DNA of 64,000 bases, taken from assembly GCA_963727525.1 (NCBI GenBank), contig CAVSGO010000007.1:1189393-1253392 (forward strand), read 5' to 3'. Shown piece after piece: positions 11,419 to 28,737 of the stretch (position 1 is the stretch's first letter; each line of letters begins with the position of its first letter). The DNA is from an uncultured bacterium. Its GTDB lineage: Bacteria; Krumholzibacteriota; Krumholzibacteriia; LZORAL124-64-63. The notes beneath the pieces are model-generated. The model did not search any database, was not told where the DNA came from, and saw only the letters and a program-made list of their open reading frames with translations. The translations under genes were made by a program, and so were the position numbers.

Positions 11419-12837
11419 CTAGGAGGACACCTGCACCGTGTAGGTGACCGTCTTCTCGCCATCCTTCGGCACGTCGACGACGAACTCGAGCGCCTGCGCG
11501 CTGAGCTTCTGGAACGGCTGCGAACTCTCCAGCACCTCCCAATCGCCGCCCACCATCTCCTGCACGTGCACCGACACGGCCTCATCCTTGTGGTTGCGCA
11601 GGGTGATCGCGAACGTCGAACGGCTCACGGTGTCGGCGACCTTGCGAAAGTCCTTCTGCACACGCGTGGCCACCACGTCGAAGGCCTTGCCCACCTCGAG
11701 GTTCACACGCTCGTCCTTCGGCGTGTGGTCGATGCGGTCCTCGCCCAGAAGTTGACGGCTGCCGCTCTGCGCCTCGCCATAGACCCGCACGACGCCCGCC
11801 GGCATGGGCAGACCGAGGTGGTTGTCCTGGCGGTTCTCGAAGGCGTAGGTCACCGTCACGTCCTGCGGCATCTCGCCCCAGCCGCCGCGCCTGAAGAACT
11901 GCCCCTGCGCCCGCGTCGTGTATTGCTTGGTCACCGTCACGCCGTCCGCGTCGAAGAGCGACACCTGCTTGGTCTGGTTGTCCTTGAGCGTCGTGGGCCA
12001 GTTCACCGTGTAGAGGTGGTAGTCGTAGAGCGCCTCCTCGGTGACGGCGCGGGCCTCGTCAGCCATCGCGTACACCTGCCCCTTCATCGCGATGGGCGGC
12101 CGGGCGGCCTGATGGATGTCGCCGGCGACGAGCATGAGCTTGGCGTCGTCGTAGGTGGCGCCGCTGCGATTGTCGACCGACACCCACGCCTGCAGACTCG
12201 CCTGGTCGCCCTTCGGCGTGAGCTGCAGAATGTAGTCCGCGGCCCAGCTCAGGCCACCGGTGAGATAGGATGCATCGATCTCGGCATCGCCGGCGCGCTT
12301 GGCCTCCGCACGCCACACGAGGGTGGGGCGGGCGCGTAGATCCGCGGGCAGCGATGGCAGCACGATGCGGCCGGGCATGTCGAAGACGATCTCACCATTC
12401 ACCGCGTACACCGGCCCGTTGGCCATGCCCAGCAGCTTGCCCGTGATGCGACCGCCGGTCTCCTGCTGCCAGGCGACGTCATGGCCCACGTACTTCTCCA
12501 TGATCTTCTCGCGCGACATCAGATCGAACTCGTAGTTCTGCTCGAGCACGGACAAGCCCGTCTTGCCGCCGATCGCGAGCACCAGCGTCTTGGGTTGGAT
12601 CTGCGACGGCACGCCCTGGAACTCGAGAGCGACAGCGCCGGCGGGCACCGCGACCCGACGCACCTCGCGCACAAGCCCGAGGTTCTGGTTGTAGACTGTC
12701 AGCTCGAGCTGGGTGCGCTGCGTGGGTTCGGACACCACGGTGGCCGGTGCGTCACCAGCCGCGCCGGCGGGCGCATCGGCCGCCAGCATCGCCCCGGACA
12801 GCGCCGCAAGCGTGAGGATTCGCAAGCGGTTGGACAT
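11419..12837 (-). CDS. Secreted DUF4139-family protein
   Basis: Signal peptide MSNRLRILTLAALSGAMLAADAPAGA. Length and composition are consistent with the DUF4139 / TIGR02231-type conserved hypothetical proteins. Confidence 0.6.
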   Translation of the reverse strand: MSNRLRILTLAALSGAMLAADAPAGAAGDAPATVVSEPTQRTQLELTVYNQNLGLVREVRRVAVPAGAVALEFQGVPSQIQPKTLVLAIGGKTGLSVLEQNYEFDLMSREKIMEKYVGHDVAWQQETGGRITGKLLGMANGPVYAVNGEIVFDMPGRIVLPSLPADLRARPTLVWRAEAKRAGDAEIDASYLTGGLSWAADYILQLTPKGDQASLQAWVSVDNRSGATYDDAKLMLVAGDIHQAARPPIAMKGQVYAMADEARAVTEEALYDYHLYTVNWPTTLKDNQTKQVSLFDADGVTVTKQYTTRAQGQFFRRGGWGEMPQDVTVTYAFENRQDNHLGLPMPAGVVRVYGEAQSGSRQLLGEDRIDHTPKDERVNLEVGKAFDVVATRVQKDFRKVADTVSRSTFAITLRNHKDEAVSVHVQEMVGGDWEVLESSQPFQKLSAQALEFVVDVPKDGEKTVTYTVQVSS

Positions 12838-12949: not shown

Positions 12950-13333
12950 ATGCTGGGAACCGTCATCATCGCGGACGATGCACCTTTCATGCGGGCCATG
13001 TTGCGCGGGATCGTGACCGACCTCGGGCTGGAGGTCGCCGGCGAAGCCTCCGACGGCGCCGAGGCCGTGGCGCTCTACCGGCAACACGCCCCCACCCTCG
13101 CCCTGATCGATCTCACGATGCCCGGCGTCGATGGTGTCGAGGCCGTGCGACAGATCGTGGCTCATGACCCCGCCGCCGCACTCGTCATGGTGTCGGCGCT
13201 CGGACAGAAGGACGCCGTGCTCGCGGCGGTCAAGGCCGGCGCGCTCGACTTCATCATCAAGCCGTTCGAAGCCGACCGGGTCGAGGCCACCTTGCAGAAG
13301 ATCCTCGGTCGCTTGCCCGTGACCGTGGCCTAG
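12950..13333 (+). CDS. Single-domain response regulator (CheY-like receiver)
   Basis: GGAGG RBS then ATG at 12950. Receiver motifs: IIADDAPFMR (acidic pocket), LALIDLTMPGVDG (phospho-Asp) and the conserved Lys in FIIKPF. Its 3' end overlaps uppP by 4 nt (convergent). Confidence 0.8.
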   Translation: MLGTVIIADDAPFMRAMLRGIVTDLGLEVAGEASDGAEAVALYRQHAPTLALIDLTMPGVDGVEAVRQIVAHDPAAALVMVSALGQKDAVLAAVKAGALDFIIKPFEADRVEATLQKILGRLPVTVA

Positions 13334-14118
13334 CTCAGCAACACGAGCGCGACCACGCCCAGGGGCAGACAGTACAGCGCGAACTTCCAGAAGTGGCGCT
13401 GCACCACTGCCAGCGCCGTCCAGCGGATCGCGAGCAACCCCACGACGAACGCCGTGAAGGCGGCGAGTGCGAGCCCCGTCGCGCCCACGCGCGAGGTAAG
13501 GTTGCCGTCCATGAGTTGCAGCACCAGCGCCCCGGCAATCGCCGGCACGGCGAGCAGGAAGCTGAAGCGCGCCGCCTCCGCCCGGGCCAGACCCAGCCAC
13601 AGCGACGCCGCGATCGTGGATCCCGAGCGGCTCACGCCGGGACAGATGGCCACGGCCTGCGCACAACCCACGAGCAGCGCCCTGCCCAGGGTGGGCGGCC
13701 GCGGCTCCCAGATCCCCGCCAGCTCCGTGGCCTGATCCCGCGCGGCACGCGTGGACAGCAGCACCAGGCCGGTGAAGATGAGCCCTCCGGCCGCGAACAC
13801 CGGTGCGCCGAACAGCCCTTCGACCGTGTCCTTGAGTGCGAGCCCCACGATCACCGCCGGAACCGTGCCCACTGCCAGAGCCATGAGGTACTGGATGGCT
13901 GGACGGTCGAAGCGCAGCAAGCGCAGGATTTCGCGCCGGTACACCACGAGCACCGAGACCAGCGTGCCGCAGTGCAGCACCACGTCGAGAAAGAAATCGT
14001 CCGCCGATGCGCCGAACAAATGCTGCAAGAGCACGAGGTGTCCGGAACTGCTGACGGGAAGAAACTCGGTCAGACCCTGCACGATGGCGAGGATCAGCGA
14101 CTCCAGCAACGGGGACAT
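13330..14118 (-). CDS. uppP: Undecaprenyl-diphosphatase
   Basis: BacA/UppP signatures QGLTEFLPVSSSGH and PGVSRSG, with about 8 TM helices. Confidence 0.9.
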   Translation of the reverse strand: MSPLLESLILAIVQGLTEFLPVSSSGHLVLLQHLFGASADDFFLDVVLHCGTLVSVLVVYRREILRLLRFDRPAIQYLMALAVGTVPAVIVGLALKDTVEGLFGAPVFAAGGLIFTGLVLLSTRAARDQATELAGIWEPRPPTLGRALLVGCAQAVAICPGVSRSGSTIAASLWLGLARAEAARFSFLLAVPAIAGALVLQLMDGNLTSRVGATGLALAAFTAFVVGLLAIRWTALAVVQRHFWKFALYCLPLGVVALVLLS

Positions 14119-14135: not shown

Positions 14136-15017
14136 TCAGGCGTTCTCGCGCGCGAGGCGCGCGAGCCGGTAGTGGTGGCGCGCCTCAGGCGTGCTGCCGA
14201 GGGCGTCGTATGTGAGGGCGAGTTGATACTGCAGGCGGCTATCCTCGGGGAACGCCGCCTCGGCGGCCTGCAGCGCGGTGAGCGCTTCGGGAAAGCGCGT
14301 GAGCTTGTGCAGGCAGGTGCCGCGATAGAACTGGGCTCGCGTGAGCTGGGGCGCCTGCCGCAGCACACGATCGAAGCGTTCGAGGGCGTCGCCATAGCAG
14401 CCCTGACGTAGCAGACACATGCCCGCGTAATAGCTTCCGCGCGCGTCGGAAGGATCGGCGGCCACGGCCTTCTCGAAACAGTTGAGCGCCCGATCGAGCA
14501 TGCCGGCCCGCAGATGCACCATCCCGAGCCCGTGGTAGGCATCACGATCCGGCTTGCTCGCGATCGCGGCCTCGAACGCGCGCACCGCCTCGTCGGTGCG
14601 CCCTTCCTCCGCGTACAGCGCGCCGAGGTTGTAATACGTCTCCGCCGATGCATCCTCGTGGAAGATCGCCTTGCGGTAGGCGCGCACCGCGTCGTCGCTG
14701 CGTCCGCGACGGTCGAGGGTGACGCCAAGATTGGTCAACAACGCGCCGCTGGTGGGATTGACCGCGAGCCCGTCGCGGAACCAGCGCTCCGCGTCTTCGA
14801 GGTCGCCCGCCTTCAGGCACACGCAGCCGAGGCGGTAGTACCAGTCCCAGTGTCCGCTCTCCTGGACGACCGCGCGCCGGTAGGCGCGGACAGCCTCGGC
14901 CCAGTCGCGCTTCAGCTCGGCATCGCGACCGGCCTGGTACCACGCGGCGGCATCGGGTTGGGCTTCGGGTTGGGCGCACATGGGCGGTATGGTAGTCGAG
15001 GCGGGTCGGTCGGTCAA
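14136..15017 (-). CDS. TPR repeat protein, translationally coupled to the MglA-like GTPase
   Basis: At least 6 TPR units (WYQAGRDAELKRDWAEAVRAYRRAV..., YYNLGALYAEEGRTDEAVRAFEAAI...). TTG start at 15017 overlaps the stop of the upstream GTPase gene (TTGA). Confidence 0.65.
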   Translation of the reverse strand: MTDRPASTTIPPMCAQPEAQPDAAAWYQAGRDAELKRDWAEAVRAYRRAVVQESGHWDWYYRLGCVCLKAGDLEDAERWFRDGLAVNPTSGALLTNLGVTLDRRGRSDDAVRAYRKAIFHEDASAETYYNLGALYAEEGRTDEAVRAFEAAIASKPDRDAYHGLGMVHLRAGMLDRALNCFEKAVAADPSDARGSYYAGMCLLRQGCYGDALERFDRVLRQAPQLTRAQFYRGTCLHKLTRFPEALTALQAAEAAFPEDSRLQYQLALTYDALGSTPEARHHYRLARLARENA

Positions 15018-15835
15018 CGATCCTCGATGTGCACCTCGAGCAGGATCCGCGTCTCGCCGCTCGTTCCCAGGGCGCTACGCGGAATGCGGACCGGGACCAC
15101 CAGCGCCACCGGCGCATCGGACCGCGGGCCATCCTCGTGGTAGCCGGGCGTGTGCGGGGTTCCCGGCACGGGTGGCGAGGAGTCGAATCCGGCCGGGCTG
15201 CCGTCGGGGCCGGGAACCGGGCTCTGGGCGGCGAGCTGCTGCTGCAGGATCTGCCCGATGGTGAGGCTCAGGATGGCCTTGAGCGCCTCACGCACCCCCT
15301 CGCCGTTGGTCACGTCCGCCGGGAACGACAGCAAGCCCCACGGATTGAGCAGGCTCTCGAGGCGGTCCACCGGCAGCACCGCGGCGGCATCGCGGTTGTT
15401 GTACTGCAGCACCACCGGCACCGACATGAGATCGCGGTTCCAGGTATCGAGGAAGCCCTTCAGCGCCTCCATGGCACTGAGCGCCTGGTCGAGCTCGTCG
15501 GGGCCCGAACTGCAAGCGAAGACGATCCCATCGAAGGGCGGACGCTGTGTCGGCGCCAGCGCCAGGTTCTCGCGCCCCACGTCCACGGCCTGGACGAAGA
15601 CCTGCCAGTCGCCCTGCTGGCCATTGCGCAGCATGAAGGCGATCTGGCGACTCGAGTCCTCCGTGGCGACGGCCAGCCGGTGCTCCGGGGGGAGCGATTG
15701 CTGGATTCGCGCCAGGGTCTGTCGCTTTCCGACGCCTGCCGGACCATAGTACAGGATCCGGCAAGATCGTGTGGCCGTATGCTGGGCAGTGAGCACCTTG
15801 CGCCTCCGTCGCGAACCATCGCTTGTGAGCAACAC
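15014..15835 (-). CDS. MglA-like Ras-superfamily small GTPase with a Pro-rich C-terminal extension
   Basis: ILYYGPAGVGKRQTL matches MglA IVYYGPGLCGKTTNL (G1) and VLQYNNRD matches MglA VIQYNKRD (G4). FDGIVFACSSG aligns to MglA VDGVVFVADSQ. The P-loop is GKR rather than GK[ST]. GTG start at 15835. A roughly 90-aa proline-rich tail (SPVPGPDGSPAGFDSSPPVPGTPHTPGY...) follows. Confidence 0.65.
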   Translation of the reverse strand: MLLTSDGSRRRRKVLTAQHTATRSCRILYYGPAGVGKRQTLARIQQSLPPEHRLAVATEDSSRQIAFMLRNGQQGDWQVFVQAVDVGRENLALAPTQRPPFDGIVFACSSGPDELDQALSAMEALKGFLDTWNRDLMSVPVVLQYNNRDAAAVLPVDRLESLLNPWGLLSFPADVTNGEGVREALKAILSLTIGQILQQQLAAQSPVPGPDGSPAGFDSSPPVPGTPHTPGYHEDGPRSDAPVALVVPVRIPRSALGTSGETRILLEVHIEDR

Positions 15836-16108
15836 CTGGCAGCAACATCCGTGCCATTCGAATGGTCATTGAAGCGACTCCTGGGCAACGGGTTACGTCG
15901 TCCGCCGATACGGACCCGGCAAAATGCACCCTGGAGGCGCCCCGGCAGCGGGGACTTCGCCATGGCATTGCGGAAGGCCCCGCGGCGAGTTCCTGAAGTT
16001 TCTGCTCAGTCCCGATGGGTGAGGCAAGGATCTTGCTGTCCCACCGCGAGATCAGGCGGTACGCGCCGCCACCGCACCACGGGACGGACCCCCATACGGG
16101 AGCGAACG

Positions 16109-16549
16109 ATGGCCAGCAATACCCCGCAGATCCTCAAAACGATGTTCTCCCGGCTGCTGAACGTGGAGGTCGAACCGGCGCTCGCCGCCAAGCTGAGCGC
16201 GGTCATCGACAGCGTGACCGAGCGGGTGGGCAACAACTTCGACCTCGAGACGGTCCAGGGCCAGAACACGTTCCGGGCACTGCTGTGCTCGATGGTCGTT
16301 CACGGCTGGGGCAACGGGATGCATCCCTTCCACAACCCTGAGAACGACCTCGAAGGCCAGCCCATCGAGGTGCGGGTGAGTAAGGACATCCTGATGCAGA
16401 TGGCTGATCTGCAGTCGCTGCGGTACGTGAAGAAGGATGCGGAAGGGCGGGTCAGGAAGGCCCTCTTCGAACCCGATCAGAACACCCGGATCCGCCAGCA
16501 GATCGACGACATCCTCGGCGAGATCAGTGCGACCAAGTGGTCCGAATAG
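16109..16549 (+). CDS. Hypothetical protein (146 aa, soluble)
   Basis: GGGAG RBS 6 nt before ATG at 16109. Amino-acid composition is normal and not Arg/Ala/Pro-skewed like antisense artefacts. It is divergent from the MglA-like gene. The upstream 360 codons of the ORF-track entry 15029..16549 run antisense to that GTPase gene and are rejected. Confidence 0.5.
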   Translation: MASNTPQILKTMFSRLLNVEVEPALAAKLSAVIDSVTERVGNNFDLETVQGQNTFRALLCSMVVHGWGNGMHPFHNPENDLEGQPIEVRVSKDILMQMADLQSLRYVKKDAEGRVRKALFEPDQNTRIRQQIDDILGEISATKWSE

Positions 16550-16606
16550 GTCGCCCATGGACGACGCGCGACCAGGGGGCCCCCGATCGCGCGTCGTCTT
16601 GAAGAT

Positions 16607-17161
16607 CTAGAAGAGTTTCTGGCCCTCGGCGAGGATCTCGTTCAGCGCGTCCTTGAAGTACGTCGTGCCGCTGGCGGCCTCGGCCCCCACTTTCTCCTTG
16701 TACAGCTCCCACGATTTCTTGATCTCCGGCCCCAGGACCTCGAGCAGATTGCCGTCGGCCAGGGCGCGATCGCGCGCCTCGCGGTTGTACACGACGATAT
16801 CCGAGACGAGCGCCCGGGCGAGCATCTCGGTCTTGTCGCGACGCCGTCGGGCCGTCGACCGCGTAGGCGCTTCCGCCACGGCCACGGCCGGTTCGGTACG
16901 CGCTGCGGCGGGACGCGGCGCCGGTGTCGCCGGCGCGGTGGGCGCCTCGACGGGCGACGTGAAGTTCTCGAAGCTCTCGAGGCTCTCGAGCCCCGTCACG
17001 GCGGCTGCCGGACGCGGCGAGGGCGCAGCGGTCTCCGGCGCCGTACCATCGAGGGTGAAGACGGTCTTGCAGTTCGGACAGCGTACGCGCACCTTGCGCC
17101 GGGGCACCTTGTCGTCGTTCAGGCGGTACCGCACGCGGCAACCGGTGCAGGTGGTGATCAT
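16607..17161 (-). CDS. MJ0042-type zinc-ribbon protein with Pro/Ala-rich linker and conserved C-terminal domain
   Basis: N-terminus CTGCRVRYRLNDDKV...VRCPNCKTVF has the two CxxC pairs of a zinc ribbon. This is followed by a low-complexity P/A/T linker and a C-terminal about 75-aa helical domain. Confidence 0.6.
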   Translation of the reverse strand: MITTCTGCRVRYRLNDDKVPRRKVRVRCPNCKTVFTLDGTAPETAAPSPRPAAAVTGLESLESFENFTSPVEAPTAPATPAPRPAAARTEPAVAVAEAPTRSTARRRRDKTEMLARALVSDIVVYNREARDRALADGNLLEVLGPEIKKSWELYKEKVGAEAASGTTYFKDALNEILAEGQKLF

Positions 17162-17250: not shown

Positions 17251-19332
17251 TCACCCGGCCGCCACGGGCACCAGCTTGCCGTAAGCCAGCTGGAGCTGGC
17301 GATGCAGGGGCGCCACGGCGGGCGCCTCCAGATGGGGATCCCCGGCCAGCAGGGCGCGCGCATCCTCGGCGCAGGCGCGCGCGAGGTCGCCGTCGCGTAG
17401 CGGGTTGGCCAGGCGGAAGCCCGGCACGCCGTGCTGACGCTCGCCCCAGAGGTCGCCCGGACCACGCAGGCGCAGGTCCTCCTCGGCCAGTTCGAAGCCG
17501 TCGGTGGTGCGCGCGAAGAACTGCAGACGATGCCACGTGGCCTCGGCGAGGTGGTCGTCGGCCATGAGCCAGCACCACGACGCGCCGCCGCCGCGGCCGA
17601 TGCGCCCGCGCAGCTGGTGGAGCTGCGCCAGGCCGAAGCGCTCCGGATGGTGGATCACCATCCAGGCGGCGTTCGGCACATCGACCCCGACCTCCACCAC
17701 CGTGGTGGCCACCAGCACGTCGATCTCGTTGGCAGCGAAGGCGGTCATCGCCGCCTCCTTCTCGCGCGGCTTGAGCCGGCCGTGCACCAATCCCACGCGC
17801 TGGGATCGGAAGGCGCCGGACGCGAGGTTCGCGGCCTCGCTCACGGCGGCCTTGATGTCGAGCGTCTCGCTCTCCTCCACCACGGGATAGATCACGTAGC
17901 CCTGGCGCCCAGCCTGCACGAGGTCGCGGCACTGCGCGTACACGCGCGTTTCGGCTCCCGCGTTCACGACCTGCGTGTCCACGGGCTGGCGGCCGGCGGG
18001 CATCTCGTCGAGGAGCGAGAGATCGAGATCGCCGTACAGCGTGAGTGCGAGGCTACGCGGGATGGGAGTGGCGCTCATCACGAGCAGGTGCGCGGGCACC
18101 TCGCCGTCGCCGCGCGCCGTGCGCCCGCGCTGCCGTACGCCGAAACGATGCTGCTCGTCGACGATGGCCAGGCCCAGGTTCGGCAATTGCACCTGGTCCT
18201 GGATCACGGCGTGCGTACCCACGAGCAGATCCACCTCGCCCTGGTTCGCGGCGCGGATGCGGCGGCGGCGCTCGGCAGCGGGCAGGGAACCGGTGAGCAC
18301 CTCCACCGATACGTTCAGTGGCGCGGCCAGGCGCTGCAATGTGCGGCCGTGCTGCTGCGCAAGCACCTCGGTGGGCGCCATGAGCAGGGCCTGGTATCCC
18401 TGCTCGATCACGAAGAGCGCCGCGATGAGCGCCACCAGCGTCTTGCCCGACCCCACGTCGCCCTGCAGGAGACGGTGCATGGCGCGGCCCCGCCGCAGGT
18501 CAGCCAGGATCTCGGCCAGCACGCGACGCTGGCCGCCGGTGAGCGCGAAGGGCAGCGCTGCCACGAGACGCGTGGTGAGGTCGCCCGGCTTCTCCAGCGC
18601 GATGCCGGGCTGGTCGACCTGCGCGCCGCGCCGCAGAGCCATGATGAGCTGGATGGCGAGCAGCTCGTCGTACACCAGACGGCGGCGGGCGGCGTCGTGC
18701 TGGGCTTGGTCGTCGGGGAAGTGGATGCCGCGCAGTGCGGTGCGCAGATCCACGAAACCGCGCCGGCGGCGCAGGGCGTCGGGCAGGTGATCGACCACCT
18801 GGGGTGCAAGGTCGGTGAGCGTTTGGTGTACCAGGCGGCGCAGCCAGTGCTGACCGATGCCCGCGGTGAGCGGGTACACCGGCACCAGCCGACCGGTGTG
18901 GAGCTGCTCGTTCTCGGCCTCGAGCACCTCCCAATCGGGATGGGTGAGCTGGCGACGGCCGCCGTGCACCTGCACCAGGCCGCTGAGCATCACCTTCTGG
19001 CCGCTGCGCAGTTGCTTGAGGAGCTGGCGCTGGTTGAACCAGACGCAGAAGATCACCCCGCTGTCGTCGGCCACGGTGACCGTCTGCAGGCTGCCGCCGC
19101 GCCGCGTGCGCCGGTCCCCGCAGGTGAGCACTTCGCCCAGGATCGTGGCTTCCTCTCCCACGCGGAGACTGCGAATGGGGATGGCGGTCGTGCGGTCGAA
19201 GAACCGCCGCGGGTAGTGCCGGAGCACGTCGGCGGCCGTCTCCAGGCCCAGGCGCGCCAGGGCAACGGATCGCACTGGACCCACCGTGCGCAGGTACTGG
19301 ACCGGGCTGTCGAGGGAGAGCGGCGGTTTCAT
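17251..19332 (-). CDS. recG: ATP-dependent DNA helicase RecG
   Basis: Wedge/OB N-domain, Walker A GDVGSGKT, DExH (IVDEQHRFG) and helicase C motifs. Length is 693 aa. Confidence 0.9.
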
Positions 19333-19626: not shown

Positions 19627-21066
19627 TCAGCGAACCCGCTTGAAGACGTGCGTCAGCCCTTTCGACTCCACGAGAGGGCTGGTGGCGCCGATATCGAGCT
19701 TGGCGATCGTCGAGCGCAGTGGCTCGACCATATCCTTCGGATTCACCCACCCGATATCGCCCCCCTGCGCCGCTGTCGGCCCTGTCGAGAAGCGCACGGC
19801 CAGCGAGCCGAAGTCGTCGCCGCGCGCGAGCGCGACCTTGAGGCTGTCGGCCGCCCGCGGGTCACCGGTGACGATATGCATGAGATGCACCTTGCCGGTC
19901 TCGCGTGCGCTGGCGACCTGCGCCCCTTCCGTCGTCAGTTCCCGGCGCCATTGCGCGAGCTCGCCCTGGCTCGATGGGTCGCGCCGGTCGAGTAGGCCGA
20001 CGACCTGCAGCGCATCGTCGTAGCGGCCGAGCTTCTCCAGGATCTGCCCCTTCACCACCAGACCCGACAGCTGTGACGAATCCTGCGCCACCGCGCGGTC
20101 GACCTCGGACAGGGCTTGCTCCAGCTCGCCGACACCCTCGAGGTGGATACCATAGTTGAGGTGGCCGATCGGATCGTCGGGCGCCAGGGTGACGTAGCGC
20201 GCGAATTGCTCGCCTGCCTCGTCGACGTGGCCCTGGATCTCGAGCACGTTGGCCAGGTTGAAGCGGTGCCGCGGCTCCTCGGGCGCCATCTTCACCGCCT
20301 GACGAAGTGCCGCGAGAGCCGAATCGGGCTTGTTGGCCGAGAACCACGCCTCGCCAAGGCCTCCGTAGGTTTCACCGCTGGGTTGCATCGCCACGGCGCG
20401 CTGGAAAATGCCCACAGCTTGCCTGGACTGGTGCGCCATGATCTTCAGTTCGCCCAGCGTCACCAGGTCCCCGGCATTCTCCCCCTCGACATCCATGGCG
20501 TCGCGGAGATGCTCCGCCGCCTGGCCCCAGAGCTGCTTGCGCTTGGCGAGATTCGCGAGCAGACGGTGCAGCCAGGGTTCGTCCATACCCTGGATCTGGA
20601 GCTGGTTGAGCAAGTTGTAGGCCTTGGCGTCCTGGCCCCGGTTCATCGCCAGACGCGCCAAACCCTCGAGAATGCCGGCGTGGCGCTGGTCGAGCGCAAG
20701 ACCCTTCTCCCACTCGGCCTCGGCGGAGTCGAGCTTGCCCGTGCCCAGAAGCGCACGGCCGTACCAGTAATGGGCGTCGGCATTGTCCGGCGCCAGCCGC
20801 GCCGCCTTCTCGCCGTAGTCCACGCCCGCCGCGTTGTCATCCTGCGACACCGCGATCACGGTGAGCGGCAGCAGTGCGTCCACGGAGTCGCCGGAGCGCT
20901 GCAAGCACTCCTTCAGTGCCGGCTTCGCCGCGGCGTAATCCTGAGCCTTGAAGAGCCGCACCCCCTCGCCGCACGGGTCGGCCAGGGGAGCCATGGGTTG
21001 TGCACGGGCGGCGGTGGCGGCGAGGCAGAGCGCAAGGAGCAGGACGGACAGACGGTTCACGGACAT
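19627..21066 (-). CDS. Periplasmic TPR-repeat protein with C-terminal PpiC/parvulin peptidyl-prolyl isomerase domain
   Basis: Signal peptide (MSVNRLSVLLLALCLAATAARA) from ATG at 21066; the TTG at 21099 in the ORF track is less likely. Multiple TPRs, then a parvulin domain (HLMHIV...DDFGSLAVRFSTGP.A.QGGDIGWV....MVEPL). Confidence 0.75.
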   Translation of the reverse strand: MSVNRLSVLLLALCLAATAARAQPMAPLADPCGEGVRLFKAQDYAAAKPALKECLQRSGDSVDALLPLTVIAVSQDDNAAGVDYGEKAARLAPDNADAHYWYGRALLGTGKLDSAEAEWEKGLALDQRHAGILEGLARLAMNRGQDAKAYNLLNQLQIQGMDEPWLHRLLANLAKRKQLWGQAAEHLRDAMDVEGENAGDLVTLGELKIMAHQSRQAVGIFQRAVAMQPSGETYGGLGEAWFSANKPDSALAALRQAVKMAPEEPRHRFNLANVLEIQGHVDEAGEQFARYVTLAPDDPIGHLNYGIHLEGVGELEQALSEVDRAVAQDSSQLSGLVVKGQILEKLGRYDDALQVVGLLDRRDPSSQGELAQWRRELTTEGAQVASARETGKVHLMHIVTGDPRAADSLKVALARGDDFGSLAVRFSTGPTAAQGGDIGWVNPKDMVEPLRSTIAKLDIGATSPLVESKGLTHVFKRVR

Positions 21067-21127
21067 CCTCTCGGGTTTCGCGACGGTGACGCGCTGCAAA
21101 CAACCCCGGATCCCGCTCCGGGTTCCC

Positions 21128-22784: not shown

Positions 22785-24113
22785 TCAGTCCATGTACTTG
22801 CGCGTGTATGCTGGCGCATTCAGGTCGTCCAGCAGAGCATCGCTGCGGAAACCGCCGCTCTTCGGCCGCGCAGGACGCAGTTCCTGCGCTTCGCCCACCG
22901 GCCTGAGGTACCGCTGCGACGTCTCGTTCGACGACTCCGTCGGCGCCTGCGGCATCACCACCTCGGGCTCGTCGCTGCCTCCGGCCGCGGCCATGGCCGC
23001 CATGGGCTCAGCTTCCTGCACAAGTTCAGGGTCCGGAGCGATCGCCGCAACCGGTTCGGGCACGACCTCGACGACAGGCTCGGGCTCCACCGATGCCAAC
23101 ACCACAGGCTCCGGCTCCGCCACGAACGGCCGACGGTACGCCGGCGTCGTCTGCGCGCTCGCCGGGAAGCCGGTGGCGATGACGGTGACCTGCAGCTCGT
23201 CGCCCAGGCTGTCGTCGTTGCCGTAGCCGAAGATGACGTGGGCTTGCGGGCCCGCCGCTTCCTGGATGTGCTGCATCGCACCCGAGGTGTCCATGAGCGT
23301 GACCTGCTTACCGACCAGATTCACGAGCACCGCCTGGGCGCCGTGGATGTCGACGTTCTCGAGCAGCGGCGAGGCCACGGCCGCGCGGGCGGCCTTGATC
23401 GCCCGCTCCTCGCCCGTCGCCGTGCCGGTACCCACGAGCGCCACGCCCATGCCCTGCATGACAGTGCGGACGTCGGCGAAGTCGAGGTTCACCACGGCCG
23501 GACGCGAGATGATCTCGTAGATGCCCCGCGTGGCCTGGTAGAGCACGTCGTCCGCGGTGCGGAACGCTTCCTGCATGGTGGCCGTGGGCGACACGACCTC
23601 GAGCAGCCGCTGGTTAGGAATGACGATGAGCGTGTCCACATGCTCGCGCAGAGCGGCGATGCCGGCCTCGGCCTGGCGCCGCCGCACGTCGCCCTCGAAG
23701 AGGAATGGCTTGGTGACGATCGCCACGGTCAGCGCGCCAGCCGCCTTCGCCACCTCTGCCACCACCGGCGCGGCCCCCGTGCCTGTGCCGCCACCCATGC
23801 CGGCGGTGACGAAGACCATGTCGGCCCCGTCGACGATGGACGCGAGGTGCTCGCGATCCTCCTCGGCCGCCTTGCGCCCGATCTCGGGATTCCCGCCCGC
23901 GCCGAGGCCTCGCGTCAAACGTGAACCGATAGCCGTAACCTGATGGGCTTTCGAGTCCTTCAGGACCTGCGCGTCGGTATTGATGGCGTGGAATTCGACA
24001 CCGGAGAGCCCAGCCTCGATCATACGATTGACGGCGTTGCCGCCTGCCCCGCCGATGCCGAGCACCTTGATATTAGCCAGCCGCTCGGGGTTGTCGGCAA
24101 ACTGGATATTCAT
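22785..24113 (-). CDS. ftsZ: Cell division protein FtsZ
   Basis: GGGAGNAVNRM tubulin signature and T7 loop. AGGAGGAGG RBS upstream of ATG at 24113 ([22 protein letters not shown]). The long Pro/Glu-rich C-terminal linker ends with a conserved C-terminal peptide ([14 protein letters not shown]). Confidence 0.95.
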
Positions 24114-24219
24114 ATTGGACCGCCTCCTCCTTGAGAAAGGTCCAGCCGCAGAGACTCCTTGTCTCATCTGATTGAATTAACACAAACGGAGCGATTGGCC
24201 AAGGGGATTCTGGGAATGC

Positions 24220-25437
24220 TCAGCGCTTCTTTCCACCCAGCCAGTTCTTCAACCGGTCGACGACGCGCGTCGAACGTTCCGGAACCGACGGCGCTTGCGG
24301 CTCCACCGCGCCGGCGCCCGCCCACAGCGCAAGCCCCAGCGCGGTGGCCCACTGGCCCTCGCCAAGGTGCTCGGCGCCCGGCAGATCATCGGGCAGGAAC
24401 CGCGGCTGCACGCTCATGCCGAAGACCTCCTCGCACAGCGGCACGCTGCCGTCGCAGCGGCTGCCGCCGCCGGTGAGGATGAGGCCGGCGGCGAGGTCGG
24501 TGAGAGGGCGATCGCTGCCGAGGTCGGACTTGACGAGGGTGAGGATCTCCTCGAGGCGGGGTTCGAGGATGGCGGCCACCAGCCCTGGCGTCTCCTGCGG
24601 GCGATCGTCATCGAACAGCACATCCAGCGATGCCGACTCCACCAGACTGCGCAGCGCGACGCCGCGGGCGCACTTGAGGCGCTCGGCCGCGTCGAGTTCC
24701 ACGCGCAGGCCATGCGAGAGGTCGCGCGTCAGGTGCATGCCACCCCACGGCACGCTACCCACGCCCACGAGGCGGCCGGCGCGCAGCATGGCCCAGTGTG
24801 TCGCCAGACCGCCAATGTCCACGAGCAGCACGCCCGCATCCTTCTCGGCCTCGGAAACGAGGCAAGCGGCGGCCGCGAGCACGTCGACCGCATGGCCGGC
24901 GGCCGTGTAACCCGCCGCGTCGATAGCCTGCTCGACATTGCGCACCACCGAGCGCGAGCCCGTGATGAGGTGCGCCTGCACCTCGAGCTGGCTGCCGGTA
25001 CGGCCGCGCGGATCCACGATGTTGCCGACGCGATCCACCGTGTAGGACACAGGATTCACGGCAAGGATCTGGTGGTCGAACGGGATGGCGAGGCTGCGGG
25101 CCTTGGCGATGACGGCCTCGATGTCGCGGTCGCGGATCGCGCGGGGCGCCGAGCCCACCTGCACCTGGCCGCGCGCCCACACCGAGCGCAGGTGCGGACC
25201 GGCGACGTTGTGGAAGAACGCCTCCACCTCCAGTTCGGCGGCCGACTCGAGGGCGCGCAGCGTGCGCTGGATGGCGCGGCTGCCGGCGCGCAGATCCACG
25301 AAGTCGCCGTCCTGAAACCCCGCGGCCCGTTCGCTTGCGGCGCCGAGCACGGCCAGCCGACCATCGTCGAGCACCTCGACGGCCACCGCACGAAAGACGG
25401 TGGTGCCGAAGTCGCAGGCGACGATGACGTGGCCCAT
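24220..25437 (-). CDS. ftsA: Cell division protein FtsA
   Basis: Actin-fold FtsA with MGHVIVACDFGTT phosphate-1 motif and a C-terminal amphipathic helix. Confidence 0.9.
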   Translation of the reverse strand: MGHVIVACDFGTTVFRAVAVEVLDDGRLAVLGAASERAAGFQDGDFVDLRAGSRAIQRTLRALESAAELEVEAFFHNVAGPHLRSVWARGQVQVGSAPRAIRDRDIEAVIAKARSLAIPFDHQILAVNPVSYTVDRVGNIVDPRGRTGSQLEVQAHLITGSRSVVRNVEQAIDAAGYTAAGHAVDVLAAAACLVSEAEKDAGVLLVDIGGLATHWAMLRAGRLVGVGSVPWGGMHLTRDLSHGLRVELDAAERLKCARGVALRSLVESASLDVLFDDDRPQETPGLVAAILEPRLEEILTLVKSDLGSDRPLTDLAAGLILTGGGSRCDGSVPLCEEVFGMSVQPRFLPDDLPGAEHLGEGQWATALGLALWAGAGAVEPQAPSVPERSTRVVDRLKNWLGGKKR

Positions 25438-25440
25438 GAT

Positions 25441-26250
25441 CTACCTCGCGTCGGCGACCGGGGGTACGAAGGTGATACGATCGGAGAAGCGCAGGTCGAC
25501 GTCGCTTCCGGCGGGCACCTGCGCCTGCGCCATGATATAGCGGTCGAGGCGCGCGCGGTAGTCCTCGCGGCCGACGCGCAGGCTACCGCGTCCGTCCTGG
25601 AGCACGATCGCGAAGCCCTCGCGCCGGCAGAGCACGAAGTCGACCGGCGCCACCGCCTCGAGGCCGGTGGCGGCGAGCGCGTCGACGAGGGCGAGCACGT
25701 CGCTCACCGCCGGCTCCTGCAGCATCCCGTCGCTCGCGAGCCGCGCGTCGACGAGCACGGGCAGGCCCGGCGCCTCGAGGTGCGCCGGTACCGGGAGCAC
25801 GCGGCCGTTCTCCAGCAGCAAGCGCGGTCGGCCTCCCGTCTTGGCGGCGGGTAACTCGAGGACGGGGCGCCACTCCCGGAAATCGACGACCACCGTGCCG
25901 GGCAGCCGCCGCCGTACGCGCAGGTCGCGCACCCAGGGCAGAGCCTGGAGCTGCGCCGCGACCTCGTCGGTGGAGAGGCGGAAGATGTTGTGGTGCAGGC
26001 AGCCTGCGAGGGCGCGCTGGAGCGCCGCCTCTTCGGTGTAGCGATAAGGTCCCGACTCCAGGCGCGTGACCGCGAAGAGGGGTGCCGTGAGCAGCCACCA
26101 CACGGCGACGCCGAGGGCCGCCGCGACCAGGACGGCGGCTGCCCCACGCCCCAGCAGGCGCCGGCGCGAGGCACCGCGCTTCTTGCGGCGCGCCATGCCA
26201 CGCGTCCTCGTATCGGCGAATTCGCCGATGATGAGCGCCGGTCCTCTCAT
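25441..26250 (-). CDS. ftsQ: Cell division protein FtsQ
   Basis: Basic N-terminus, single TM (AAVLVAAALGVAVWWLL) and POTRA-like periplasmic domain. ATG at 26250 overlaps the murC stop (ATGA). Confidence 0.75.
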   Translation of the reverse strand: MRGPALIIGEFADTRTRGMARRKKRGASRRRLLGRGAAAVLVAAALGVAVWWLLTAPLFAVTRLESGPYRYTEEAALQRALAGCLHHNIFRLSTDEVAAQLQALPWVRDLRVRRRLPGTVVVDFREWRPVLELPAAKTGGRPRLLLENGRVLPVPAHLEAPGLPVLVDARLASDGMLQEPAVSDVLALVDALAATGLEAVAPVDFVLCRREGFAIVLQDGRGSLRVGREDYRARLDRYIMAQAQVPAGSDVDLRFSDRITFVPPVADAR

Positions 26251-27611
26251 GGCGTGGCCCGCTCGTCGAGATGCGAGGTGATCGTGTCCACGAGGCGACC
26301 GATGTCGCCCGCGCCGAGAGTGAGTAGCAGATCGCCAGACTGCACCTGATCGTCGAGCCACGCCGGCACGTCGCGCGGGCTCGCGAGGACGGTGACGACG
26401 CCGGCGTCCTTCTCGCGCAGGCCGTCGGCGATGAGATCGCTGGTCACGTCGCCTGGGTCGACTTCGCTCGCCGCATACACCGGCAGCAGGGCCACGGTGT
26501 CCGCACCGGCAAGGGAATCGGCGAACTCGCGCTGAAACCGCCGCGTGCGCGAGTAACGATGGGGCTGAAAGAGCACGGCCACGCGCCGGTCGAAGCTGCG
26601 CGCCACTTCCATGGTGGCCTGGATCTCGGTGGGGTGGTGCCCGTAGTCGTCGAGCACGAGCACGTCGCCGTGCACGCCGCGATTCTCGCAGCGGCGACCC
26701 ACGCCGCGAAACCCGGACAGTCCGCGCGCGATGGACGCGAAATCCACGCCCAGCTCCAGTCCCACGGCCACAGCCGCGAGCGCATTGCGCAGATTATGGC
26801 TTCCGCGCACCGGTAGCTCGATCGTCCCCAGTTCCTCGCCGAAGGCATGCACCACGGTGCGTTGCGCCGTGACCTCGGCGCGGACCTGCGCCTCGGTCGT
26901 CAGTCCGTACGTGAGGACCTTGCGATCCAGGCGCGCGGCGAGGGCGCGGACCTCGGCGTCGTCGTGACAGAGCACGGCGGTGCCGTAGAACGGCACGCGC
27001 GCGAGGAAGGCGGAGAAGGCCTCGCGCAGATGGTCGAGATCGGGATAGAAGTCGACATGCTCGAGGTCGATGTTCGTGACCACCGCGATGGTGGGGCTCA
27101 GGCGCAGAAAGGTACCGTCGCTCTCGTCGGCCTCGGCCACCAGGTACTCGCCCTTGCCGAGCTGCGCGTTGGTGCCCGTGGCCAGCACCTTGCCGCCCAC
27201 GATCACCGTGGGGTCGATCCCCCCCTCGCCCAGCACCGCCGCCACCATGCTCGTGGTGGTGGTCTTGCCATGCGAACCGGCGATGGCCACGCCGTACTTC
27301 AGACGCATCAGCTCGGCCAGCATGTCGGCGCGGCGGATCACGGGGATGCGGCGATTGCGCGCCGCGCGGATCTCGGGGTTGGCATCGGTGACGGCGGACG
27401 AGTAGACGACGACATCCGCCCCCGTGACACGGTCGGCGCCGTGACCGACGAACACGCGCGCGCCGAGCTCGCTCAGGCGCCGGGTGGTGGCGGTCTCGTG
27501 CAGATCACTGCCGCTCACGCGGAATCCAAGGTTGAGCAGGATCTCGGCGATGCCGCTCATCCCGACGCCGCCGATGGCTACCAGGTGGATGTGACGGGTG
27601 TTGCGAAACAT
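26247..27611 (-). CDS. murC: UDP-N-acetylmuramate--L-alanine ligase
   Basis: MFRNTRHIHLVAIGGVGMSGIAE... with Mur ligase motifs. ATG at 27611 has a GGAGG RBS. The ORF-track 5' extension to 27848 is rejected. Confidence 0.9.
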   Translation of the reverse strand: MFRNTRHIHLVAIGGVGMSGIAEILLNLGFRVSGSDLHETATTRRLSELGARVFVGHGADRVTGADVVVYSSAVTDANPEIRAARNRRIPVIRRADMLAELMRLKYGVAIAGSHGKTTTTSMVAAVLGEGGIDPTVIVGGKVLATGTNAQLGKGEYLVAEADESDGTFLRLSPTIAVVTNIDLEHVDFYPDLDHLREAFSAFLARVPFYGTAVLCHDDAEVRALAARLDRKVLTYGLTTEAQVRAEVTAQRTVVHAFGEELGTIELPVRGSHNLRNALAAVAVGLELGVDFASIARGLSGFRGVGRRCENRGVHGDVLVLDDYGHHPTEIQATMEVARSFDRRVAVLFQPHRYSRTRRFQREFADSLAGADTVALLPVYAASEVDPGDVTSDLIADGLREKDAGVVTVLASPRDVPAWLDDQVQSGDLLLTLGAGDIGRLVDTITSHLDERATP

Positions 27612-27633
27612 GATGCCTCCGTGCCCCTCGATC

Positions 27634-28737
27634 CTACGCCGCCGGCGCTCCCGATGCCAGCCGCAAAACGTCGGCGGCAATATCGGCGGCCGCGCGCGGC
27701 CGCGCCAGGCTGGCGGCGGCCGTCGCCATCGCGGCCAGGCGGGCGCGATCGCCGACGATGGCCTCGACCATGGGCGCCAGCGTGTCCGCGCGGCAATCGC
27801 GGTCCTCCAGCACGACGGCGGCGCCGGCCGCCTCGCGGGCGCGGGCATTGCGGAGCTGGTGATCGTCGGTCGCGTGCGGGAAGGGCACCAGTACCGCCGG
27901 ACGGCCGGTCACGGCCAGCTCGGCCAGCGTCATCGCGCCAGCCCGACACACCACGAGGTCGGCCCAGCGCAGCCCGGGCGCCATGGCATCGATGTAGGGC
28001 ATCACGCGTACCCGCGCCGGCGACCAGGCGGCGAATGCCGCCGCCACCTCCGCATGGGCGGTGGGGCCCGTCTGCACGACGAGCGCGAGGTCGCCTCGTT
28101 GCCGCCACCGCGGCGCGATCGCCGCCAGGGTTTCATTGAGCGTGCGGGCGCCGCCGCTGCCGCCGACGACGAGCACGCGCACATCGCCCTGCGGCAGATC
28201 AGGCGCCGTCGCCGTACCCGCGCTGAAGGCCGCGCGCACGGGATTGCCGGTCAGCACGCAACGTGCGGCCGGCAGCCAGCGCCGCGCCGCCTCCTCCCCC
28301 AGATAGATGCGCTGCGCCCATCGCGCGGCGAGTCGGTTGGCCGATCCGGGCACCGCATTCTGCTCCTGGATCGCGCAGGCGATGCCGCGCGCACGCGCCG
28401 CCGCCATCACCGGGCCGGTGACGTAGCCGCCGGTGCCGAGCACCACCTGCGGACGCCAGCGGCCGAGCAGCACCCACGCCGCGAGCGCCCCGCGGCCGAA
28501 GTTTCCCAGGAACCGCGTGCGAGCCACCGCACCGAGGCCGCGAAAGCCCGAAGCCGGCACCGCATGGAATGGCAGACCGGCGTCGGTGGCGAGGCGGCGC
28601 TCGATACCCCCCGGCGTGCCCGCGAAACGGATCTCGATGGTCGGCGCCTGTGCGCGCAGCGCCTCTGCGATGGCCAGCGCGGGGTAGACGTGCCCCCCCG
28701 TACCACCACCGGTGAGCAGCACGCGCGGCGCGGTCAC
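27634..28737 (-). CDS. murG: UDP-GlcNAc:undecaprenyl-PP-MurNAc-pentapeptide GlcNAc transferase
   Basis: LLTGGGTGGHVYPALAIAEAL N-terminal motif. GTG at 28737 overlaps the ftsW stop (GTGA). Confidence 0.9.
   Translation of the reverse strand: MTAPRVLLTGGGTGGHVYPALAIAEALRAQAPTIEIRFAGTPGGIERRLATDAGLPFHAVPASGFRGLGAVARTRFLGNFGRGALAAWVLLGRWRPQVVLGTGGYVTGPVMAAARARGIACAIQEQNAVPGSANRLAARWAQRIYLGEEAARRWLPAARCVLTGNPVRAAFSAGTATAPDLPQGDVRVLVVGGSGGARTLNETLAAIAPRWRQRGDLALVVQTGPTAHAEVAAAFAAWSPARVRVMPYIDAMAPGLRWADLVVCRAGAMTLAELAVTGRPAVLVPFPHATDDHQLRNARAREAAGAAVVLEDRDCRADTLAPMVEAIVGDRARLAAMATAAASLARPRAAADIAADVLRLASGAPAA

Follow-up and report, generated by a model that had tools for sequence, protein, structure and literature searches.

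Virtually all P-loop NTPases are considered to hold their Mg2+ by a Ser or Thr in the Walker-A motif. In eukaryotic pseudoGTPases (e.g., Rnd, RhoH, CENP-M and the pG domains of p190RhoGAP), the G domain is kept as an interaction module while catalytic residues are lost. MglA (Group 1 of the MglA family, within the Ras superfamily), studied in M. xanthus and T. thermophilus, carries a GKT P-loop and a switch-I Thr, and its exchange factor is RomX, a partnership that has been shown experimentally. The helix-1 residues R11, R14 and D19 of RomX are required for MglA-GTP binding or GEF activity, and RomX-fold domains are also found in proteins unrelated to MglA. In GltJ (AgmX), a ZnR-linker-GYF arrangement forms a switch operated by MglA-GTP, in which the linker binds MglA-GTP and the ZnR binds the linker and MglB, with no binding to MglA (PMC11135422). 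MglA-TPR pairs also have precedents (PMC3983030, PMC7519303, PMC7668184), among them MglA/SgmX of M. xanthus and MglA/Bd2492 of Bdellovibrio; the Bdellovibrio MglA keeps the GTP-binding residues, and its TPR gene (Bd2492) lies in the tamAB operon, not beside mglA (PMC3983030).

The locus that we compared with these systems lies in a 64-kb window, i.e., the whole stretch of DNA analysed, and its central features are the following.

14136..14981, minus strand: cytoplasmic 7-repeat TPR protein, 281 aa from ATG 14981
15014..15796, minus strand: MglA-derived small G protein, 260 aa, GTG start (phmmer, Foldseek and start-site evidence)
15017..15226, minus strand: C-terminal tail of the G protein, with a conserved PPxPG in its Pro-rich linker and a conserved segment at its end
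15722..15745, minus strand: P-loop GPAGVGKR with G18, G23, K24 and R25 invariant (translation and counts in 120 orthologues)
15841..15856, minus strand: sigma-54-type promoter TGGCACGGATGTTGCT, oriented toward the GTPase gene, 3' end 44 nt upstream of its GTG
16023..16036, minus strand: conserved box GCAAGATCCTTGCC, family consensus ATGCAAnTTGCTTGCC, in 51 of 55 intergenic regions
16109..16549, plus strand: highly conserved 146-aa cytoplasmic protein, divergently transcribed
16607..17161, minus strand: zinc-ribbon / variable Pro-Ala linker / RomX-like protein, 184 aa (PF13717, TIGR02098, PDB matches)
16625..16837, minus strand: RomX-like helical domain of that protein, residues 109-179 (PDB match to RomX)
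17051..17161, minus strand: MJ0042-type zinc ribbon of that protein, residues 1-37, CxxC...CxxC

The sequence-only reading had proposed MglA kinship for the minus-strand ORF ending at 15014, quoting the strings ILYYGPAGVGK and VLQYNNRD, both of which are found in the translation. The G protein matches no Pfam or NCBIfam model, and it has more than 271 homologues. Its PDB matches by phmmer are MglA chains only (E 2e-12 to 4e-11), MglA being its best sequence match, and the AF2 model (pLDDT 86.6) has MglA as its top 14 Foldseek matches (E about 1e-13), with Ras/Rab matches at E 1e-9, about five orders of magnitude weaker. Sequence and fold comparison put the protein closest to MglA, with which it shares its fold, the two signatures YYGP...GK and QYNxRD, and the intrinsic Arg of switch I (MglA R53, here R50). 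The G domain occupies approximately residues 10-190 and is followed by a 70-aa tail, an extra conserved element compared with MglA. The start that had been placed at 15835 is replaced by GTG 15796, which has GGAGG 8 nt upstream and agrees with the public gene call (P0001), whereas GTG 15835 lies just 6 nt past the -12 element of the conserved sigma-54 promoter. The G3 region has no insertion, although one had been suggested; instead, the interswitch and switch-II regions align as 2-5 residues shorter than those of MglA. The proline-rich tail is present, with 13 Pro, and its length is about 70 aa and not about 90. Its last 30 residues are conserved (v.PV..PR..L....r..LEv), and AF2 places the terminal segment at a pLDDT of about 80.

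Residues of the nucleotide site were counted over 120 orthologues of the G protein. Unlike the GKT of MglA, the P-loop here reads GKR: Arg25 stands at the place of the Mg2+-coordinating Ser/Thr (MglA Thr26) in all 120, so the substitution first noticed in the single sequence is invariant, and G18, G23 and K24 are each likewise found in 120/120. The switch-I Thr is also gone, since position 51 (MglA Thr54) is Gln in 97 orthologues, Glu in 17, His in 5 and Ala in 1, and never Thr or Ser, while R50 is kept in 117/120. Where MglA has T-x-x-G-Q, the G3 motif here is V-D-x-G-x-E (V-D-x-G-[R/Q]-E), and the T/DxxGQ form with its catalytic Gln does not occur. The position aligned to the catalytic Gln82 of MglA (position 75) is Arg in 62, Gln in 25, His in 8 and Lys in 7, i.e., the equivalent is gone in about 80% of members; in switch II, D72 (120/120) and E76 (118/120) are retained. 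The G4 motif is N-x-R-D rather than [NT]KxD, with N133 in 118/120 and R135 in 116/120; the Lys expected at position 134 is outside the six commonest residues, which cover 110/120, and the G4 Asp is relaxed (Asp 85, Glu 13, Gly 8, Ala 5, Asn 4, Ser 3), being replaced in 29% of members. The earlier suggestion of a pseudo-GTPase or atypical nucleotide handling therefore holds up: both Mg2+ ligands are lost family-wide and the catalytic Gln is mostly lost, with the P-loop Gly and Lys invariant. Judging from these counts and the structural model, the family fits the definition of a pseudoGTPase, in which catalytic residues are lost and the fold is kept under purifying selection, and it resembles the eukaryotic pseudoGTPases in retaining its G domain, although the lineage here is bacterial.

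We know of no other family in which the Walker-A Ser/Thr is replaced by a conserved Arg, and none was found in text searches of the literature. Among the best 150 of 3829 relatives, GKR is limited to the Krumholzibacteriota G-protein family. A sister clade at the orthologous locus has GK[S/T], lacks the G-x-E and keeps the G4 Asp invariant, whereas in the GKR clade the switch-II D-x-G-x-E and the relaxed G4 Asp co-vary with GKR. A large orthologous family under purifying selection with Arg for the Walker-A Ser/Thr, together with a GK[S/T] sister clade at the same locus, amounts to a natural experiment, and the comparison would show a Ras-like switch turning into a pseudo-enzyme, with a compensating switch-II G-x-E and a relaxed NKxD.

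The gene downstream of the GTPase gene encodes a protein in which seven TPR_2 stretches were found, in agreement with the six or more repeats described before. It is downstream of the GTPase gene in 54/54 Krumholzibacteriota loci that reach past the latter, and also in the GK[S/T] sister clade, so the operon-like link between the two genes stands. The TTGA stop/start overlap, on which translational coupling had been proposed, is present in the sequence but not conserved: in the public annotation the TPR gene begins at ATG 14981, 36 nt later than the overlap and after a 32-nt gap, and the distance from the GTPase stop to the first in-frame ATG of the TPR ORF across 54 scored loci is mostly a gap of roughly 30-95 nt, which leaves the coupling unsupported. 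The alternative start, TTG at 15017, would yield 293 aa. Similar to Bdellovibrio MglA/Bd2492 and M. xanthus MglA/SgmX, an MglA-type protein with no coupled MglB is accompanied here by a cytoplasmic TPR protein. In contrast to the Bdellovibrio case, the TPR gene lies directly downstream of the GTPase gene; the similarity is generic, the best matches being consensus TPRs and OGT. A tblastn search that took two MglB sequences as queries found no MglB/roadblock gene in the 64-kb window, nor within 10 kb of any of 55 related Krumholzibacteriota loci, and recovered the MglB of the L056 control; none of the 52 window ORFs scanned against Pfam, a set that takes in the gene-like ORFs, matched Robl_LC7. 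The absence of an adjacent MglB noted from the sequence is hence upheld; a coupled MglB is typical of the MglA family, in which orphans are known.

The same-strand upstream neighbour of the GTPase gene is the zinc-ribbon/RomX-like gene, with the 146-aa gene between them on the opposite strand. Assignment of its N-terminus as an MJ0042-type zinc ribbon is backed by TIGR02098 (37.7 bits, cut-off 20.9, E 1.2e-9) and PF13717 (46.5 bits, cut-off 30.3, E 3e-12), and this region matches 7zok, the ZnR of AgmX/GltJ, at E 3.5e-4. The protein is like GltJ in its MJ0042-type zinc ribbon, long flexible Pro-rich linker and small protein-binding domain; in contrast to GltJ, the C-terminal domain is RomX-like and not GYF, and there is no membrane segment. 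The earlier statement that zinc ribbons bind MglA-GTP in the Glt machinery needs correcting, since in GltJ it is the linker that does so. The RomX-like domain matches RomX (PDB 8zna) at E 6.8e-9 over 71 ungapped residues (109-179 on 7-77). In an alignment of 42 sequences, the window's included, RomX R14 and D19 correspond to R116 and D121, in columns that are both at least 95% conserved, whereas R11 aligns with a Met that has a conserved basic RRRR run just before it. Unlike RomX, the domain follows a zinc ribbon and a disordered linker in one polypeptide, and the helix-3 interface for the RomR REC domain (L75, R76, W87) is missing: Ala/Glu stand at the aligned positions, and with its C-terminus 5 residues further on the protein stops before the RomR-binding region; no RomR was identified. 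On the G-protein side, the acidic patch of MglA modelled to contact RomX is kept in part, D103 corresponding to E111 and E110 to the neighbouring E118. With a RomX-like domain next to an MglA-type gene, the idea of a switch- or polarity-type module is strengthened, and the MglA/RomX toolkit, hitherto studied in Myxococcota and Bdellovibrio, is extended to Krumholzibacteriota, an uncultured phylum of the FCB group. The ZnR-linker-RomX architecture is new here, as is the sigma-54 control layer described next, and the locus offers concrete constructs for the question of how RomX-type domains recognise a GTP-like state.

The putative sigma-54 promoter follows the consensus TGGCAC-N5-TTGC (-24 GG / -12 GC) at a fixed upstream place. 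Using the strict motif TGGCA-N6-TTGC, whose matches read TGGCA[CT]-N5-TTGC, we found it in 55/55 orthologous intergenic regions, always on the GTPase strand and never on the other, with its 3' end 43-83 nt from the GTPase start. Out of 81 motif matches in 812 kb of related loci, 55 are the GTPase-gene promoter; the copy at 15841..15856 is the sole perfect match in the window, and the promoter is also present in GKS-clade loci. Neither RpoN nor a cognate enhancer-binding protein was detected in the 64-kb window by Pfam scans of its ORFs. The box GCAAGATCCTTGCC lies upstream of the -24 element by roughly 60-130 nt in related loci (mostly 70-85) and by about 170 nt in the window, within flanking sequence that is not conserved, and is a candidate enhancer/regulator site or part of the divergent gene's promoter. 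That divergent 146-aa ORF is coding by its GC3 of 0.88; the label of orphan does not apply, as the protein has 653 homologues at 72-88% identity and its gene was found in every related locus whose upstream sequence is covered.

Beyond the TPR gene lie three further genes.

13330..14118, minus strand: UppP/BacA undecaprenyl-diphosphatase (PF02673, E 2e-70), 17 nt after the TPR stop
12950..13333, plus strand: single-domain CheY-type receiver (PF00072)
11419..12837, minus strand: DUF4139/DUF4140 protein, a conserved neighbour with an N-terminal signal-peptide-like segment by eye

UppP/BacA is probably co-transcribed with the TPR gene here and is a variable member of the block, undetected by tblastn in 9 loci that reach the CheY gene and displaced in others. 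The CheY-type receiver, for which T. maritima CheY is the nearest match of known structure (E 1.7e-32), is encoded in 50/55 Krumholzibacteriota loci, the remaining five ending before it, and also in the sister clade. The DUF4139/DUF4140 gene is a conserved neighbour with no evidence of module membership. Over 20 kb of synteny is conserved in four related loci with full gene tables, and the side-by-side position of the 146-aa, CheY and DUF4139 genes therefore says little, gene order alone being weak evidence for a module.

The explanation that we favour, with about even confidence, is a hydrolysis-dead MglA-type adaptor with RomX-like and TPR partners under sigma-54 control, in a polarity-type module conserved across Krumholzibacteriota. 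Its G domain would have lost the GAP-stimulated hydrolysis cycle and would hold a single conformation resembling the GTP-bound state, with the invariant Arg25 filling the Mg2+/gamma-phosphate site and paired with D72 and E76, the switch-II acids that co-vary with it. Binding of this adaptor by helix 1 of the RomX-like domain would resemble that of MglA-GTP by RomX, and the TPR protein would be its effector or scaffold, the part that SgmX and Bd2492 play for MglA. Control may have shifted from a GAP/GEF cycle to sigma-54/enhancer-dependent transcription and partner availability, the latter set by the zinc-ribbon/linker switch and perhaps also by the CheY receiver. Candidate outputs include pole or site selection for an envelope machine, because SprA (type IX secretion system) or a cell-division (dcw) cluster adjoins the block. 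Nevertheless, the invariant P-loop Gly and Lys and the RomX-like exchange-factor neighbour could equally point to a persisting nucleotide cycle. The protein might then be a working GTPase switch with non-canonical chemistry, a tentative reading that we consider somewhat unlikely, in which Arg25 acts in place of Mg2+ or joins R50 as a cis arginine finger, nucleotide exchange falls to the RomX-like domain, and an unrecognised protein, e.g., the 146-aa protein, is the GAP. Such a switch would account for the near-absolute constraint on G18, G23, K24 and R50, which goes beyond the need of a pure scaffold, and for a neighbour homologous to a bona fide MglA exchange factor with R14 and D19 retained; in MglA groups 2 and 3 the G4 Lys is likewise absent, and CvnD9 nevertheless hydrolyses GTP (PMC4316618). 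It would, however, have to operate without both Mg2+ ligands and Gln82, i.e., every element known to be necessary for MglA catalysis, with the guanine-specificity Asp replaced in 29% of members, with no roadblock/MglB GAP detected in the window or the 55 loci, and with a 146-aa protein for which no similarity to any GAP was detected.

It is distinctly unlikely, in our estimation, that the protein is a nucleotide-free structural pseudo-GTPase whose pocket is filled by an Arg25/Asp72/Glu76 network and which offers an interaction platform through a hyperconserved DRLESLLNPWGLLSFP surface and its docked tail. Relaxation of the G4 Asp in the GKR clade only, a peak of conservation that falls in NPWGLL and the tail and not in the nucleotide motifs, and the confident docking of the tail on the G domain by AF2 are all in keeping with such a platform, but the constancy of G18, G23, K24, N133 and R135 would be difficult to account for if no phosphate or nucleotide were bound. 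Least probable, and in our view very improbable, is that the module is inherited gene order only, with the MglA-like protein acting elsewhere and the ZnR-RomX-like, 146-aa, TPR and CheY genes functionally unrelated. The order from the ZnR gene to DsbD (>10 kb) is indeed identical in the window and the four loci, down to 42-50% G-protein identity, and UppP, UbiA and HATPase_c_2 genes are gained or lost inside the block. Against this, a RomX homologue beside an MglA homologue is an unlikely coincidence given the demonstrated partnership, a change of the upstream junction from SprA/M28 to RecG left the break outside the ZnR gene, and the GTPase and TPR genes are close together on the same strand in every locus, behind a single sigma-54 promoter.

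A bolder reading can be put forward that we regard as unlikely in its entirety. The P-loop Arg would replace Mg2+, with nucleotide bound metal-free and the protein permanently "on-like", so that a polarity-type module would for the first time be seen to have a bacterial pseudo-GTPase at its centre; the GK[S/T] clade of Krumholzibacteriia, already without Thr54 and Gln82, would be an evolutionary intermediate, the hyperconserved 146-aa protein would found a new class of partners, and an envelope machine, e.g., the type IX secretion system or the divisome, would be what the module positions. Lastly, P0244 looks like a GTPase-TPR fusion or a frameshift product.

G+C makes up about 69% of the window. 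Real genes around the G protein were picked out by codon-position G+C, and no Rfam family was matched between 11 and 20 kb.

Genes around the G protein, picked out by codon-position G+C
11419-12837, minus strand: DUF4139 protein
12950-13333, plus strand: CheY-type receiver
13330-14118, minus strand: UppP
14136-14981 (or 15017), minus strand: TPR protein
15014-15796 (or 15835), minus strand: G protein
16109-16549, plus strand: 146-aa protein
16607-17161, minus strand: zinc-ribbon protein
17251-19332, minus strand: RecG

Neither the G protein nor the 146-aa protein gave a usable match in Pfam or NCBIfam, the sole match, to AAA_24 (E 0.04), falling short of the cut-off for that model. When the G protein was compared with all PDB sequences using phmmer, it matched MglA chains only (3t12 at E 2.3e-12; M. 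xanthus MglA at about 3.5e-11). An AlphaFold2 model generated from a 102-sequence alignment has a mean pLDDT of 86.6, with most of the G domain above 94, and when it is compared with the PDB by Foldseek, MglA takes the top 14 places (E 4e-14 to 3e-12), followed by Rab and Ras at about 1e-9. These matches place the protein in the MglA lineage, as a sequence-only reading had proposed; the strings quoted in that reading are found in the sequence, and the P-loop translates as GPAGVGKR. The start proposed there, GTG 15835, was abandoned: the public gene call P0001 (260 aa, 100% identical) begins at GTG 15796, with a GGAGG located 8 nt ahead of it, and GTG 15835 is only 6 nt past the -12 element of a conserved sigma-54 promoter and would thus be upstream of the transcription start, which is expected near 15829. 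The supposed insertion in the G3 region is likewise not there, as both the interswitch region and switch II are shorter than in MglA, not longer. The Pro-rich tail is present, with 13 prolines, but is about 70 rather than about 90 residues long. Its PPxPG motif is among the most strongly conserved parts of the protein, and the terminal segment v.PV..PR..L....r..LEv, placed by AlphaFold2 with a pLDDT of about 80, is also strongly conserved.

Residues at nucleotide motifs in 120 orthologues of the G protein (MglA numbering in brackets)
G18, G23, K24: 120/120 each
R25 (T26): 120/120
R50 (R53, intrinsic Arg): 117/120
Position 51 (T54): Q 97, E 17, H 5, A 1; S or T never
D72: 120/120
G74: 119/120
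Position 75 (Q82): R 62, Q 25, H 8, K 7
E76: 118/120
N133: 118/120
Position 134 (K of NKxD): R, G, H, Q, A or N in 110/120; Lys is not among these
D136: D 85, E 13, G 8, A 5, N 4, S 3

The two Mg2+ ligands are lost throughout the family and the catalytic Gln in most of it, and the phosphate-binding glycines and lysine are invariant. This loss across 120 orthologues points to the pseudo-GTPase, or atypical nucleotide handling, suggested earlier for the single protein. Literature text searches listed no paper describing a small-GTPase family with a Walker-A Arg or such bacterial pseudoGTPases, and none on MglA in Krumholzibacteriota. In a 2014 survey of Ras-like GTPases from prokaryotes, the general G1 motif is GxxxxGK[T/S], and group-specific deviations are recorded for G4 and G5 only, in groups 2 and 3 (PMC4316618).

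A word-indexed search retrieved more than 271 homologues, and those with a named taxon are Candidatus Krumholzibacteria; IMG auto-annotation calls some family members 'MglA' or 'SR-beta'. Scanning one genome per GTDB species yielded 56 loci, of which 55 are of Krumholzibacteriota type, some labelled otherwise. The sole non-Krumholzibacteriota locus (L056), from an Acidobacteriota genome, was ruled out as a family member, since what it encodes is a canonical MglA+MglB pair. When 1.84 billion representatives were searched exhaustively with a profile, the family stood out sharply as the top group (E <= 1e-41), followed by about 2,250 ordinary MglA-like proteins from E of about 1e-32 downward, and GKR is confined to the family among the best 150 relatives. 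Most of the best-scoring MglA-like proteins with a canonical P-loop in this library (P0249-P0385) are 300-600 aa long, with an MglA domain at the N-terminus and a long extension C-terminal to it (Pro-rich in P0249, the only one aligned). This architecture is not known from characterised MglA proteins.

A search seeded with one relative, P0242, revealed a second Krumholzibacteriia clade (P0242, P0386-P0398 and P0245; P0391 is named Krumholzibacteriia) that has the NPWG motif and the C-terminal segment in common with the GKR clade, i.e., the orthologues with Arg after the P-loop Lys. The P-loop of this sister clade reads GKT or GKS rather than GKR; its switch II has no G-x-E (D-A-A-A-V-G, against D-x-G-x-E); and its G4 is NRQD, NKQD or NKRD with an invariant Asp, against N-x-R-D with a relaxed Asp. 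Since Thr54 and Gln82 are already gone in a clade that keeps GK[S/T], the loss of catalytic residues preceded the Thr-to-Arg change. Judged from the aligned sequences, that change came together with the switch-II G-x-E and the relaxed guanine-specificity Asp, and we infer from this three-way co-variation a compensating network of Arg25 and acidic residues at or close to the site of Mg2+ and the gamma-phosphate. The sister clade sits at the orthologous locus (L062, L063), with genes for RecG, the zinc-ribbon/RomX-like protein, (HATPase_c_2), the 146-aa protein, the G protein, the TPR protein, CheY and DUF4139, and with the same sigma-54 promoter. In one sister-clade protein (P0244, 639 aa), the G protein continues into the downstream TPR protein, which reflects a genuine fusion or else a frameshift in the assembly.

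The zinc-ribbon protein consists of an MJ0042-type ribbon (residues 1-37; TIGR02098, PF13717), a variable Pro/Ala linker and a segment, residues 109-179, that aligns ungapped to the MglA exchange factor RomX (8zna, E 6.8e-9). RomX needs R11, R14 and D19 of helix 1 to bind MglA-GTP or to act in exchange, and it binds the RomR receiver through L75, R76 and W87 (preprint 10.1101/2024.02.20.581209); the preprint also notes Foldseek hits in which a RomX-like fold is combined with receiver and zinc-finger domains. In an alignment of 42 sequences, the equivalents of R14 and D19 (R116 and D121) fall in columns at least 95% conserved; that of R11 is a Met following a conserved RRRR run, and the protein stops short of the RomR-binding residues. 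The ribbon also matches the ZnR of AgmX/GltJ (7zok, E 3.5e-4). The earlier statement that zinc ribbons bind MglA-GTP in the Glt machinery is to be corrected: in GltJ it is the linker that does so, the ZnR showed no MglA binding, and the ZnR partners are the linker and MglB (PMC11135422).

The TPR protein, expected to hold six or more repeats, has seven TPR_2 stretches and is otherwise generic, its best PDB matches being consensus TPRs and OGT. Two TPR proteins, Bd2492 (PMC3983030) and SgmX (PMC7519303, PMC7668184), are established partners of MglA. The TTGA overlap of the two genes exists in the window, but the public call starts the TPR protein at ATG 14981, leaving a 32-nt gap, and in most of the 54 loci scored roughly 30-95 nt separate the G-protein stop from the first in-frame TPR ATG. 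The genes are adjacent on one strand, but the overlap is not conserved and translational coupling by it is not supported. Nor is the 146-aa protein, which has an invariant Cys/His cluster, an orphan, with 653 homologues. The receiver is of true CheY type (closest PDB match T. maritima CheY, E 1.7e-32). The reported lack of an adjacent MglB extends further: a search of the window and of the sequence up to 10 kb from each of the 55 Krumholzibacteriota loci turned up neither MglB nor a second MglA.

We aligned the 55 intergenic regions, the window's included, that separate the 146-aa gene from the G-protein gene, and only two islands are conserved. One is a textbook sigma-54 promoter, TGGCA[CT]-N5-TTGC, which in 55/55 regions points toward the G-protein gene and in none occurs on the opposite strand, the 3' end of the 16-nt match lying 43-83 nt from the G-protein start. 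The other, a 16-nt box, ATGCAAnTTGCTTGCC, occurs in 51/55 regions and is a candidate enhancer or regulator site.

Conserved islands in the window
15841-15856, minus strand: sigma-54 promoter TGGCACGGATGTTGCT, the only perfect match in 64 kb
16023-16036: conserved box GCAAGATCCTTGCC

From the box to the -24 element downstream of it, the distance is roughly 60-130 nt in related loci, with most values at 70-85 nt; in the window it is about 170 nt. Neither RpoN nor an enhancer-binding protein is encoded in the window. The strict sigma-54 motif occurs 81 times in 812 kb of related loci, and 55 of these are the G-protein promoter. About 23 of the 81 mark another conserved site, whose distance downstream from the G-protein start ranges over 7.4-10.1 kb and is mostly 8.3-10 kb; in locus L060 it lies near 18281 (plus strand), just upstream of a gene for a hypothetical protein of about 210 aa, with an FG-GAP gene coming next. 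The window yielded no counterpart.

The window's gene order from the zinc-ribbon gene to DsbD is kept in four loci of distant family members (L060, L061, L062 and L063), so conserved adjacency alone is weak evidence; UppP, UbiA and HATPase_c_2 genes vary in presence inside the block. Independent support is limited to two links. The first, between the G protein and the RomX-like protein, is drawn because the MglA/RomX partnership is known; the second, between the G protein and the TPR gene, because of their shared strand, close spacing, single promoter, conservation in the sister clade and the fused or frameshifted P0244. Against these two links, synteny by mere coincidence strikes us as very improbable.

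Our preferred reading, held with evenly balanced confidence, is an MglA-derived pseudo-GTPase module in which the G protein is an adaptor. The G domain would be unable to hydrolyse GTP by the MglA mechanism and would probably be fixed in one conformation, with Arg25 taking the role of Mg2+; it would link the RomX-like/zinc-ribbon protein with the TPR protein, and control would have moved to sigma-54-dependent expression and partner availability. A GTPase that still cycles by unusual chemistry is unlikely, though a serious contender. A scaffold without nucleotide seems improbable: in its favour, the family's conservation is strongest outside the nucleotide motifs, in the DRLESLLNPWGLLSFP stretch between G4 and G5 and in the tail; against it, the P-loop lysine is invariant.

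Only hints bear on the cellular output of the module: adjoining genes of type IX secretion or of cell division, and the CheY receiver. Upstream of the zinc-ribbon gene are SprA (the type IX secretion translocon) and an M28 peptidase in 29 of the 37 loci with enough sequence; in L060 (1170-7610), SprA (about 2150 aa) and the peptidase are directly upstream. In the remaining 8 loci, those of the window's clade, RecG takes that place, and beyond it come the dcw cluster (window) or FtsZ (L062). A further hint, of partner-switching input, comes from an RsbW/SpoIIAB-like HATPase_c_2 gene between the zinc-ribbon/RomX-like and 146-aa genes in the sister clade (L062 8389-9246; L063 8408-9253), an additional HDOD gene in L063 (6713-7633) and a SpoIIE(PP2C)-PDZ protein encoded in the window at 718-3780. 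The window's dcw cluster (22785-39656, minus strand) extends from mraZ and mraW to ftsZ, by way of ftsI, mur ligase genes, mraY, ftsW, ftsQ and ftsA; the expected place of murG, 27849-28733, is outside the scanned ORFs. A TPR-PpiC gene and the dcw cluster precede RecG in the window, where two TPR proteins follow the cluster, one of them the PpiC rotamase fusion (19627-21099).
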